Of a DNA stretch of 64,000 nt, positions 3,833-35,338 are shown piece by piece. This DNA comes from an uncultured Gemmatimonadota bacterium (GTDB taxonomy: Bacteria; Blakebacterota; Blakebacteria; Blakebacterales; CAYUVJ01): contig CAZFHZ010000001.1 in NCBI GenBank assembly GCA_964519015.1, positions 5,476-69,475 of the forward strand, read 5' to 3'. Position 1 is the first letter of the stretch; every line of letters begins with the position of its first letter. Under the pieces are notes generated by a model that was given only the letters and a program-made list of their open reading frames with translations, was not told the origin of the DNA and ran no database searches. The position numbers and the translations under genes are program-made.

Positions 3833-4851
3833 TTCCCACTCCTCAGATCGTAGATGCAGATGTTCCAGCCCGGGGCTTTCCGGCCCACCGCCTGGTTGCC
3901 TCGCGACGGGCCGTAACTGAACGCCAGGTAGTTGGCGTCGGGTGACCAGTCGACGTGATAGACTTTGAAGTCCCGGGTACAGGCGATCACCGGTCGCTGG
4001 TCCCGCACGTTCTCCGTTCCGGCCGAGAAGTCGATTGCACCGACCGCGATATCCCAATCGCTTCTGCCCCAGGCGATCCGCCCCCCGTCCGGACTGATAT
4101 CCGGACGACAGCCATGGATCGAGAGCGCGATCTCCGTGGTGTTGTCGGCCTGGAAGGCGATGTTGTCGCGGCCGCCCCCCCTCGAGGTGGCGACGAACCA
4201 CCGGCCGTCGGGCGACCAGCAGATGTTGAAGAGCAGGCGCAGTCCATCGTTCGGATGGCTGTGCACCTGACCTGTCGCGACCTCGTAAAAATCCAGGCCC
4301 CGGTTCGACCAGCTGTCACCCCGGTAGCGCGCGAATTCCCCCTTCATATAGGCGATGTAACGGCCGTCCGGGCTCCAGCAGGGCTGGCGGGCATTCTCGG
4401 CGACCCGGGTGCGGCCGGAGCCGTCGATGCCCATGACATAGACGTTCCGGCGCCTGGTCTCGGGACTTTCCCCCTCATCGGCTACGAAGCTGATCCGGGT
4501 CCCATCTGGTGATGCGTGCGGGTAGAACTCGTCGACATCGGGTGTGTTGGTCAAAACTACATTATTGGAACCGTCGGCATCGATCCGGCAGATCTCCCAG
4601 TTCTCCCTTCCCTCCGTCTCGCGGAAGGACTCGTAGACGATCCGGAACGGGATCGCTCCCAGGTCCAACTCGGAACGGGGCAGAGGAGCCCGCTGCGCCG
4701 GCAGGTTCGGATCCTCTCTGGTTCTCGACGCCCTCGCACCGGATCGCTGCTGAGCCGAAGTCTGCCCGGCCGGCGACAGGACCGTCGTCAGGATGATCAG
4801 AGCCGGTAGGATCAGTGTTCCGATGCCCGGTTCGCGACGGCACCCTTTCAT
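3757..4851 (-). CDS. PD40/TolB-like beta-propeller repeat protein, secreted.
   Basis: Repeated WSPDG / SPDG PD40 motifs are present. The signal peptide is MKGCRREPGIGTLILPALIILTTVLSPAGQTSA from the internal start at 4851. Confidence 0.7.
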   Translation of the reverse strand: MKGCRREPGIGTLILPALIILTTVLSPAGQTSAQQRSGARASRTREDPNLPAQRAPLPRSELDLGAIPFRIVYESFRETEGRENWEICRIDADGSNNVVLTNTPDVDEFYPHASPDGTRISFVADEGESPETRRRNVYVMGIDGSGRTRVAENARQPCWSPDGRYIAYMKGEFARYRGDSWSNRGLDFYEVATGQVHSHPNDGLRLLFNICWSPDGRWFVATSRGGGRDNIAFQADNTTEIALSIHGCRPDISPDGGRIAWGRSDWDIAVGAIDFSAGTENVRDQRPVIACTRDFKVYHVDWSPDANYLAFSYGPSRGNQAVGRKAPGWNICIYDLRSGKWTEITDDGQHNKEPDWVPIPSAGR

Positions 4852-30804: not shown

Positions 30805-31012
30805 CATTACAGTATCCCTCACGCTAAGAGGCTCAGGTCGCCTGCCGGTCCGGAGAGGATAATAGATTTCCCGAAGTTCGGGAAGTCCTCCTCACTCTTG
30901 AAGAGGGCCCGGTGCTCGGTCGCTACTACCGTCACCCCCGCGGATTCCTTCTAGTGTCCCGAGTCGGAAATCGGACTTCCGGCAGACGACCCTTGACGTC
31001 CTCATTGTACTA

Positions 31013-31034
31013 TTGTACTAATATATTAGTACAA
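31013..31034. promoter_or_regulatory. Perfect 22-bp palindrome TTGTACTAATATATTAGTACAA (GntR-type GT-N-AC operator), preceded by an extra TTGTACTA direct half-repeat.
   Basis: The palindrome sits 29 nt upstream of the GntR gene ATG. A TTGACG -35-like hexamer lies at 30993..30998. The region is AT-rich in a 70% GC background. Confidence 0.6.
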
Positions 31035-31062
31035 TAATCCCTCACCCGCAGGGGAGGCTCGC

Positions 31063-31440
31063 ATGGAGTTCCTGATCGATTACACCAGCGGGATCCCGAT
31101 CTACCGTCAGATCATCGAGCAGGTCCGCTACCGCGTAGCCCGGGGGGAACTGGTTACCGGGGACCGCCTGCCCACCGTGCGCCAACTCGCCGTCGACCTC
31201 TCGATCAACCCCAATACGGTCGCCCGGGCGTACCGCGAACTCGAGTTCGAGGGGGTCCTCGACACCCAGCAGGGCTCGGGGACCTTCGTCGGACGTCGGG
31301 TCCCCGCGATCGACCCGATCGAGCGGCAGCGCCGGCTCGATCAGATCCTCACCGAGCTGCTCACCCGGGCAGCCGCCTACGGTCTCACCCTCGAGGAGCT
31401 GCAGGCCGGGCTCCGGATCCGCCAGGAGGCCTCGTCATGA
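31063..31440 (+). CDS. GntR-family transcriptional regulator, short YtrA-like subtype.
   Basis: The 125-aa protein has the wHTH block LPTVRQLAVDLSINPNTVARAYRELEFEGV. It has no large effector domain. Confidence 0.85.
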   Translation: MEFLIDYTSGIPIYRQIIEQVRYRVARGELVTGDRLPTVRQLAVDLSINPNTVARAYRELEFEGVLDTQQGSGTFVGRRVPAIDPIERQRRLDQILTELLTRAAAYGLTLEELQAGLRIRQEASS

Positions 31441-33868: not shown

Positions 33869-35173
33869 TCAGAAGAGCGCACCATAGAGCAGACCGGTGA
33901 GGGTGGCCATGACCACCACCAGTCCGACGAAAGCCAGGGTCTTGCGCGTCCCGATCACGCTGCGGATGACCAGCATGTTGGGCAGGCTCAGCGCCGGACC
34001 GGCCAGCAGCAGCGCCAGCGCCGGTCCCTTCCCCATCCCGCTCGAGAGCAGTCCCTGCACGATCGGCACTTCGGTCAGCGTCGCGAAGTACATGAAGGCG
34101 CCGGCCAGCGACGCGGCCAGGTTGGCCCCGAAGGAATTGCCCCCCACCAGACCGGCGATCCAGGCGTTCGGGATGATCCCCCGGCTCCCCGGCTCCGGAC
34201 CACCCAGGAGAAGGCCGGCCACCAGCACGCCGGCCGCGAGCAGCGGCAGGATCTGCCGGGCGAAGCCCCAGCTCGAGGCCAGCCACTCCCGGGGCTCACC
34301 CCCGGTGACCGCCAGCAGCACGCTCAGGAGCACGACCGCGAGCGTGAACGGGACGGCGGGATGGGCCGGGAAGAGGAGGGCGGCGGCGGCCACGACGACC
34401 GCAGCTACGGTGACCGGCAGCGGCCTGAGGCCGAGCATCCGGACCAGGGAGAGGGCCAGGAGCAGGCCGAAGAGAGCCGTGATGAGCCACTTGGAGTGGA
34501 AGAGGACCCACCAGAGACCGGAAGTCGTCACCGGCCGTCCCCAGTTGGCGAAGACCAGGATGGCCACCAGGATGAAGAAGTGTCCGGCGGTCATCCAGAG
34601 GGGACGGGGCTCCTCCAGGACGGGTACCGCCACCTGGGCGGCCGCCCGTTCCTTTTCCTCCTTCCGGAAGAGGAACTGCATGGCCAGGCCGATGATGATG
34701 CTGAAGCCCACCGCCCCGACCACCCGGGCGATCCCCAGTTCCGGACCGAGGATACGGGCGGTCAGGATGATGGCCAGGATGTTGATCGCCGGTCCCGAGT
34801 AGAGGAAGGCGATGGCCGGGCCCAGGCCGGCCCCCCGCTTGTGGATGCTGGAGAAGAGCGGCAGCACGGTGCAGGAGCAGACCGCCAGGATGGTGCCGGA
34901 GACCGAGGCCACCAGGTAGGCCAGCCACTTCTTGGCATCCGAGCCGAAGTACCTGACCACGGCTGCCTGGCTGACGAAGACCGCGATCGTGCCGGCGATG
35001 AAGAAGGCCGGCACCAGGCAGAGCAGGACATGCTCCCGGGCGTACCACCGGACCAGGGCCAGGGCCTCACCGACCGCCCGATCGAAGACCGGTTGGCCGA
35101 CCGGCAGGAAATAGGCCAGCAGGAAGAACCCGAGGATCCAGAGCAGGCTCCCGCGTTCTTCTTTCCAGCTCAT
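33869..35173 (-). CDS. Two-domain permease of the ArsP-like (DUF318) family; putative organoarsenical efflux.
   Basis: The polytopic protein carries a CSC motif in a TM helix (ILAVCSCTVLPLF), comparable to the ArsP TPFCSCS motif. It is the first gene of the ars operon. Confidence 0.6.
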   Translation of the reverse strand: MSWKEERGSLLWILGFFLLAYFLPVGQPVFDRAVGEALALVRWYAREHVLLCLVPAFFIAGTIAVFVSQAAVVRYFGSDAKKWLAYLVASVSGTILAVCSCTVLPLFSSIHKRGAGLGPAIAFLYSGPAINILAIILTARILGPELGIARVVGAVGFSIIIGLAMQFLFRKEEKERAAAQVAVPVLEEPRPLWMTAGHFFILVAILVFANWGRPVTTSGLWWVLFHSKWLITALFGLLLALSLVRMLGLRPLPVTVAAVVVAAAALLFPAHPAVPFTLAVVLLSVLLAVTGGEPREWLASSWGFARQILPLLAAGVLVAGLLLGGPEPGSRGIIPNAWIAGLVGGNSFGANLAASLAGAFMYFATLTEVPIVQGLLSSGMGKGPALALLLAGPALSLPNMLVIRSVIGTRKTLAFVGLVVVMATLTGLLYGALF

Positions 35174-35223
35174 GACGGCGACCGGGGACCGAAGACCGGG
35201 AGGCGGATCACACGTAGAACCTC

Positions 35224-35255
35224 CATTTCGTCATTTCGTCATTTCGTCATTTCGT
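35224..35255. repeat. Four perfect tandem copies of the octamer CATTTCGT (TGACGAAA on the transcribed strand) in the ars operon promoter region.
   Basis: The repeat catttcgtcatttcgtcatttcgtcatttcgt lies 51-82 nt upstream of the arsP-like start. On the minus strand it begins gTTGACGaaa (-35-like). Confidence 0.85.
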
Positions 35256-35261
35256 CAACCG

Positions 35262-35292: not shown

Positions 35293-35338
35293 CAATCCTA
35301 GATTCGGCAAGGCAGGAAGCTGGGACCGGGGCGCGGCC

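Follow-up and report, generated by a model that had tools for sequence, protein, structure and literature searches.

An 8-bp tandem array upstream of a predicted ars operon is probably a multiplied arm of an ArsR operator

Introduction

Immediately upstream of an arsenic resistance (ars) operon, four perfect copies of an 8-bp unit stand head to tail in a 64-kb stretch of DNA (the window, by which we mean the whole stretch analysed). What does such an array do at this position, and how did it arise? A preliminary description of the window regarded the array as a substrate for slipped-strand copy-number change, which could alter the spacing between the −35 and −10 promoter elements, or alternatively as an iterated binding site for a regulator. 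Here we consider the array together with the genes around it, with the same locus in close, syntenic relatives and in more distant homologous loci, and with the positions of a candidate promoter, a predicted repressor site and a ribosome-binding site.

Results

The array and its genomic setting

On the plus strand, positions 35224–35255 consist of CATTTCGT repeated four times, and the periodicity continues with CA to position 35257, giving 4.25 copies. In the direction of transcription the array reads g-TTGACGAAA-TGACGAAA-TGACGAAA-TGACGAAA-TG, beginning gTTGACGAAA. TRF assigns it a period of 8, 4.2 copies, 100% matches and a score of 68, the highest among the 48 rows that TRF lists for this DNA. 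A 16-mer made of two units occurs in the window only within the array and is absent from 100 dinucleotide shuffles. The single unit TGACGAAA is found six times in the window against 0.57 expected, with four of these six occurrences inside the array. Both the sequence and TRF bear out the four perfect repeats of the preliminary description, and the coordinates confirm the distance given there, the array lying 51–82 (84) nt upstream of the permease ATG at 35173–35171 (minus strand).

The array falls outside the annotated coding regions, between the terminator of brnQ and an operon comprising genes for an ArsP-like permease, an arsenate reductase (arsC), a thioredoxin-like protein and ArsR (Table 1). 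Neighbouring genes identified by Pfam are brnQ, the ars genes, Band_7, GntR and fumarase, in agreement with the identities first proposed for the flanking genes (brnQ, the ArsP-like permease and the ars genes). The upstream neighbour brnQ, whose best named matches are from Acidobacteria, is a transcription unit separate from the ars operon. The match of the arsenate reductase to TIGR02691 scores under the curated cut-off for that family, and the repressor matches HTH_5 (E = 4.6e-18) and NF033788 (98 bits). The listed ArsR ORF begins at GTG 32955 and encodes 126 aa; the start found in relatives is equivalent to ATG 32922 (115 aa, MTLD...), which is likely to be the true start in the window as well. 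With that start, the arsR gene would overlap the stop codon of the thioredoxin-like gene before it. An exact look-up of the window permease matched no contig.

Table 1 Features of the array, the predicted regulatory sites and the surrounding genes in the window
Feature	Position	Strand	Basis or remark
Tandem array, (TGACGAAA)x4 + TG	35257–35224	−	Sequence and TRF
Array units 1 to 4, each the right arm CGAAAT of the predicted ArsR operator plus GA	35257–35250, 35249–35242, 35241–35234, 35233–35226	−	Sequence
Predicted primary ArsR operator, imperfect palindrome ATTTGC-ACGGTTGA-CGAAAT	35268–35249	−	Motif scan
Candidate sigma-70-type promoter	35295–35266	−	−35 TTGCCC (35295–35290), 18-nt spacer, −10 TATATT (35271–35266)
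brnQ intrinsic-terminator-like hairpin, TGCCCCCTggaagagAGGGGGCA then TATATTTGCA	35294–35262	−	Overlaps the candidate promoter spacer
Short leader ORF	35226–35170	−	Read from sequence
brnQ, Branch_AA_trans, LIVCS branched-chain amino-acid transporter	36706–35339	−	Pfam
ArsP_1 (PF03773) permease, first long gene of the operon	35173–33869	−	Pfam, E = 6e-74
LMWPc, LMW-PTP-type arsenate reductase (thioredoxin-coupled ArsC type)	33850–33416	−	Pfam and NCBIfam
Thioredoxin_3, MTH895/ArsE-family thioredoxin-like protein	33419–32922	−	Pfam and NCBIfam
ArsR/SmtB repressor, HTH_5, LCVCEITD motif	32955–32575	−	Pfam and NCBIfam

A palindrome shared by homologous ars loci

We fetched 80 genome loci (labelled L) that contain homologs of the window permease with 57–70% identity, mostly from Bacteroidota or Ignavibacteria, with some from Desulfobacterota and Gemmatimonadota. 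An inverted repeat recurs upstream in these loci, for example ATATTTCGTGATTATACGAAATGA in L038, CATTTCGTTATATGACGAAAC in L010 and AATTCGTTATTTGACGAAATGA in L011. Allowing at most one mismatch, the pattern ATTTCG-N8-CGAAAT has 43 sites in the 80 loci (636 kb), whereas composition-preserving shuffles average 1.7 and reach 5 at most. Twelve of the 43 sites are at the start of close homologs of the window ArsR, and ten precede the permease by no more than 120 bp. Most others belong to Bacteroidales-type loci and precede the permease by about 1.4–2.1 kb; L038 was the one such locus checked, and there the distal site overlaps the beginning of an HTH_5 ArsR-like gene that is more distantly related. 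The usual layout is thus operator, arsR, operator, permease, which is the signature of an autoregulated repressor site.

The window ArsR, the presumed binder of this predicted operator, is 53% identical to the ArsR of L010, whose gene is flanked by two of the palindromes. The helix-turn-helix stretch LCVCEITD(I/V)LGLA(T/P)STVS(R/K)HL (LCVCEITDILGLATSTVSRHL) is nearly identical between these two proteins, and the HTH is fully identical in the window and in the relatives L081 and L084. At the DNA level, the array unit plus its overlap, TGACGAAATGA, is identical to the right arm of the operator with its flanks in L011 and L075. Because TGACGAAATGA is the right arm of these palindromes, the array amounts to one operator arm, multiplied. 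The earlier alternative of an iterated regulator site is therefore upheld in part: the unit is one arm of a conserved inverted-repeat operator, but what has been multiplied is that single arm and not the whole site. The accompanying remark that ArsR proteins use inverted repeats proved sound, the array being one arm of such a repeat.

An extra arm in the same orientation, 7–8 bp downstream of the palindrome, accompanies 8 of the 43 operators, in other phyla. On the upstream side of the palindrome an extra arm occurs once among the 43. By our own estimate, the expected number is about 0.5. In the 80 more distant loci, TRF detected no array of three or more arms. A different repeat was noted in L046 at 3938–3986 (a Mangrovibacterium MAG), where an unrelated 14-bp array with a 7-bp sub-period, TCATTCATCAATTA x3.5, lies between a TATTCG-N8-CGAACT operator and the permease start, another repeat expansion in a similar leader.

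The predicted operator of the window

Within the 64-kb window, ATTTGC-ACGGTTGA-CGAAAT is the only site with two or fewer mismatches to ATTTCG-N8-CGAAAT, matching it at 10 of 12 positions. Its right arm is perfect and is the same as unit 1 of the array. Its left arm, ATTTGC, which is located 8 bp upstream of the array arm and overlaps a TATATT −10-like hexamer, is degenerate. This predicted operator sits upstream of the first gene of the permease-arsC-trx-arsR operon, overlapping the candidate −10.

The operator layout is kept in the relatives L081, L084, L085, L155 and L156 and hence in all six alleles considered below. Across these alleles the block ATTTG[CT]AC[AG][AG]TTG[AGT]CGAAATGACGAAATG is conserved, with substitutions confined to the N8 spacer or to the last base of the left arm; the intergenic DNA around the block, including the terminator stem sequence, has diverged. 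The left arm in the window lineage (ATTTGC or ATTTGT) is without the CG core, which is the best-conserved part elsewhere. Taken alone, a 4/6 match of the left arm at a fixed position has about a 4–10% chance, and this arm could be conserved on account of the −10 hexamer and not of ArsR. We also looked within the array for second, overlapping palindromes and rejected them: 14 nt before each extra arm stands the 6-mer AAATGA, which is unlike the left arm and matches ATTTCG at two of six positions.

Copy number among close relatives

Protein searches identified relatives with a permease of 84–88% identity and a brnQ of 95% identity, on contigs that share synteny with the window across fumarase, brnQ, the ars operon, Band_7 and GntR. 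P0122, a brnQ homolog of 80% identity, has no adjoining ars operon, so the synteny is confined to close relatives. The six syntenic alleles, on related metagenome contigs, carry 2, 2, 2, 4 (the window), 5 and 8 units. After the terminator, the window allele reads TATATTTGCACGGT(TGACGAAA)4TGGAGG. The two-unit alleles are TTATTTGTACGGT-TGGCGAAA-TGACGAAA-TGCACCCAGGGAG..ATG(ACR3) in L081/L082, TATATTTGCACAAT-TGTCGAAA-TGACGAAA-TGATGAGC in L085/L157 (two samples), and TACATTTGTACGGT(TGACGAAA)2TGGAGG in L155. L156 has five units, (TGACGAAA)3(TGACTAAA)2, and L084 has eight, (TGACGAAA)6(TGACTAAA)2.

L155 stems from JGI metagenome 3300063170. The two longest alleles, L156 and L084, come from different JGI metagenomes, 3300062772 and 3300062545 respectively, and differ by 3 mismatches in about 2300 aligned bases, together with one 24-bp indel. 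They are 99.9% identical outside the array, and the indel corresponds to exactly three units. The variant unit TGACTAAA is itself duplicated in both, which indicates more than one duplication event. With copy numbers taken from short-read metagenome assemblies, in which miscounts are possible, these sequence comparisons support a change in copy number by slippage on a short evolutionary scale, and the variation among relatives agrees with the initial description of the array as a slippage substrate. Two units, the commonest state, are probably ancestral. Overall, intact operons are headed by 16 to 64 bp of array.

In a metagenome-wide scan for TTGNCGAAATGACGAAATG, none of the 66 matches had the ATTTGYAC left context of the ars locus. 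Judged from their flanks, many of the matches are one recurring coding stretch and several are eukaryote-like minisatellites. One match of three units, TTGACGAAATGACGAAATGACGAAC, on the GC-rich (0.65) metagenome contigs L096, L100 and L114, overlaps the beginning of an ORF of 516 aa (4670–4688 in L100, minus strand).

Could the expansion simply be neutral? A two-arm operator that happened to be a 2x8-bp direct repeat may have become a microsatellite, expanded by slippage in a tolerant 5′ leader, with the extra units neither binding ArsR nor altering expression. Several observations fit this explanation: (i) More than two units are found only in the window and in the L084/L156 lineage. (ii) The 80 distant loci contain no other array of at least three arms, so the expansion may be neutral drift. 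(iii) A symmetric ArsR dimer cannot put both of its recognition helices on direct arms 8 bp apart, a geometry unfit for the array. (iv) The units are perfect copies, implying youth. However, all alleles keep the second arm and other phyla repeatedly show an extra one, which argues that at least two direct arms are functional; from the sequences, the second direct arm probably is. Moreover, the added arms carry the exact consensus 11-mer, so some affinity for ArsR is likely. We regard the neutral microsatellite as a serious rival for the expanded part of the array, and as possible but rather doubtful as an explanation of the locus.

Position of the array relative to the promoter and terminator

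The candidate promoter of Table 1 was found with a promoter scan, which recovers TTGCCC-N18-TATATT in the window and TTGCCT-N18-TATATT in L084 and passes two of the four scanned alleles, L081 and L085 giving no hit. By eye, promoter-like pairs are present in L085 (TTGTAT-N17-TATATT) and L155 (TTGCCC-N17-TACATT). Because the scan fails in L081 and L085, we treat this promoter as a candidate rather than as established. Since the only sigma-70-like pair is upstream of the array, the array would be located at or after +1. With this promoter, the palindrome would overlap the −10 and +1, and the array would make up approximately the first 35 transcribed nt.

A quite different arrangement, in line with the earlier suggestion that copy number could alter −35/−10 spacing, is a phase-variable promoter in which the TTGACG of the first unit is the −35 and the number of units sets the spacing, producing an on/off switch. 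The gTTGACG sequence is a 5/6 match to the −35 consensus TTGACA, and copy number does vary among relatives. However, no −10-like hexamer is present 16–18 nt after TTGACG in any allele. In the two-unit alleles the GGAGG ribosome-binding site directly follows the array, and in L155 about 33 nt separate the T of TTGACG from the ATG. With the SD and ATG so close, transcripts from a promoter built on TTGACG would begin at the start codon or past it, and there is no room in these alleles for a −10 or a TSS after TTGACG; this speaks strongly against TTGACG as a −35 with a downstream −10, and the proposed change in spacing is not supported. In addition, steps of 8 bp would leave a single working copy number, yet 2, 4, 5 and 8 units head intact operons, and a better promoter candidate lies upstream. 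We consider a phase-variable promoter highly improbable.

The terminator-like hairpin at 35294–35272, with its T-rich tail, is kept in L081 (465–486) and, by eye, in L084 (~186–209). The sequence of the brnQ terminator stem is wholly different in each relative, yet it still forms a hairpin bounded by TGCC...GGCA (L084 by eye). This stem falls exactly in the spacer of the candidate ars promoter.

The leader ORF and the operon head

Downstream of the array, the short leader ORF has an SD, GGAGG, at 35224–35220 and a GTG at 35211–35209 in frame with the last ATG of the array (35226–35224). Its stop codon, TGA (35172–35170), overlaps the permease ATG as ATGA. No separate SD precedes the permease ATG (35173), and the leader ORF probably couples translation of the permease. 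In L084, GGAGG-8nt-ATGATCC starts a Thioredoxin_3 gene. The leader of the window, GGAGG-8nt-(A/G)TGATCC, matches the start of this small thioredoxin-like gene and thus looks like a deletion scar, suggesting that the leader ORF is probably a remnant of such a gene start. L085 has an analogous uORF ending ..CCGTCATGA.

The stretch between promoter/operator and permease differs in content among the alleles. In L081 (539–2978) it holds ACR3(SBF)-Trx3-thioredoxin-DsbD, in L084 (286–555), L155 and L156 it holds one small Trx3, and in the window (35173–35224) and L085 it holds no gene. While the promoter/operator cassette stays fixed, the operon head behind it appears to be a hot spot where genes are gained and lost.

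Might the array act in the leader through something other than ArsR? All units have one orientation, as would suit another direct-repeat-binding protein such as a response regulator, and each unit contains an AUG, with a UGA overlapping the next AUG, so that an RNA-level element of the 5′ leader could consist of overlapping AUG-ACG-AAA-UGA mini-ORFs or of a protein-binding repeat. OmpR/PhoB-type sites usually have a phasing of 10–11 bp or 21–22 bp. The 8-bp period of the array is unlike this phasing, and no response-regulator gene was identified by Pfam among the annotated neighbours; iterons and response-regulator repeats were rejected on the grounds of period and gene neighbourhood. The mini-ORFs, for their part, have no SD. 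A local Rfam search at E <= 10 gave no meaningful match, one of the whole window at gathering thresholds gave none, and the leader folds more weakly than 195 of 200 shuffles (z = +1.82), which together speak against a cis-regulatory RNA. Against both versions, the unit equals the predicted ArsR operator arm. An iterated site for another protein or an RNA-level role is in our judgement very unlikely.

Discussion

We propose that the array is probably the gene-proximal arm of an ArsR operator, copied head to tail by replication slippage. The repressor site in this operon family would be the palindrome ATTTCG-N8-CGAAAT. In the lineage of the window the site would take the form ATTTG(C/T)-N8-CGAAAT-GA-CGAAAT, overlapping the 3′ end of TATATT and the predicted transcription start, and ArsR at this site would keep RNA polymerase blocked until it is released by As(III). 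Starting from two direct arms, the ancestral state, the array would have grown to four units in the window and to five and eight in a sister lineage. Each added unit would contribute a repressor half-site and 8 nt of 5′ leader, leaving the −35/−10 spacing unchanged.

A further step would be to regard the array as a mutable rheostat with which an environmental bacterium sets its arsenic resistance, slippage changing the number of ArsR half-sites. Half-sites would be gained or lost just downstream of the transcription start, and a lineage or subpopulation would inherit its own repression strength or induction threshold for the ars operon. We hold this to be unlikely on balance. If true, however, it would describe a contingency locus in which the recognition element of a repressor is the repeat unit, and an ArsR subfamily that uses direct plus inverted arms, for instance with the help of a second dimer that binds cooperatively.

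The wider meaning of the multiplied operator arm depends in part on this question. If copy number tunes ArsR occupancy, the locus would clearly exemplify a hypermutable repeat whose unit is a repressor half-site. The logic of contingency loci would then reach beyond host-adapted pathogens, to a soil or sediment bacterium that is free-living and high in GC, and would take in a metal(loid) resistance operon. Two outcomes are independent of any tuning. One is the operator predicted for a widespread family of ArsR/ArsP-permease operons, ATTTCG-N8-CGAAAT, which often has a third direct arm and could be used for regulon prediction and in the design of arsenic biosensors. The other is the operon head as a candidate hot spot of gene gain and loss behind its fixed cassette. 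In the literature we found no description of an ATTTCG-N8-CGAAAT operator or of repeat-expanded ArsR sites.

Comparison with known systems

Judged from its sequence, the array is best explained as an element that behaves like an ArsR/SmtB operator and mutates like a simple-sequence contingency locus. At ars promoters, ArsR/SmtB operators are imperfect inverted repeats, e.g., those of E. coli ArsR and B. subtilis ArsR/AseR (PMC12607644). As in these systems, the operon studied here is predicted to be autoregulated and encodes its own ArsR with a CVC metalloid-binding motif, and an AT-rich site, a putative imperfect palindrome, overlaps the candidate promoter, from which As(III) is predicted to release the repressor. 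Unlike the known ArsR/SmtB operators, the palindrome is of the 6-8-6 type (ATTTCG-N8-CGAAAT), one arm is iterated directly two to eight times, and the other arm is degenerate in the window lineage.

The same layout, a palindrome with an extra direct arm, occurs 4 kb away in the window. Upstream of a GntR/YtrA-like gene (31063–31440), positions 31004–31047 (plus strand) contain a perfect 11-2-11 palindrome, ATTGTACTAAT-AT-ATTAGTACAAT, preceded at an 8-bp offset by an additional direct copy of its left arm (ATTGTACT) and following a TTGACG hexamer. This GntR/YtrA-type site is conserved in L081 (7170–7135, minus strand). It stays at one extra arm, and further expansion is seen only at the ars site.

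Simple-sequence contingency loci offer the second comparison. Upstream of hmw1A and hmw2A in H. influenzae, the number of 7-bp repeats grades expression, and upstream of nadA in N. meningitidis a TAAA tract alters the geometry of the NadR/IHF operator. The ars array resembles such loci in three ways: it is a short tandem repeat of perfect copies, it is located in a 5′ regulatory region, and its copy number differs between near-identical genomes. Like the hmw and nadA repeats, it would lie outside the −35/−10 spacer, and any effect of copy number would thus be graded or mediated by the repressor. It differs from the contingency loci of host-adapted bacteria in that the array unit is itself a predicted repressor half-site, that the host is apparently a free-living, high-GC, environmental bacterium, and that most alleles of the array are at the minimal two copies.
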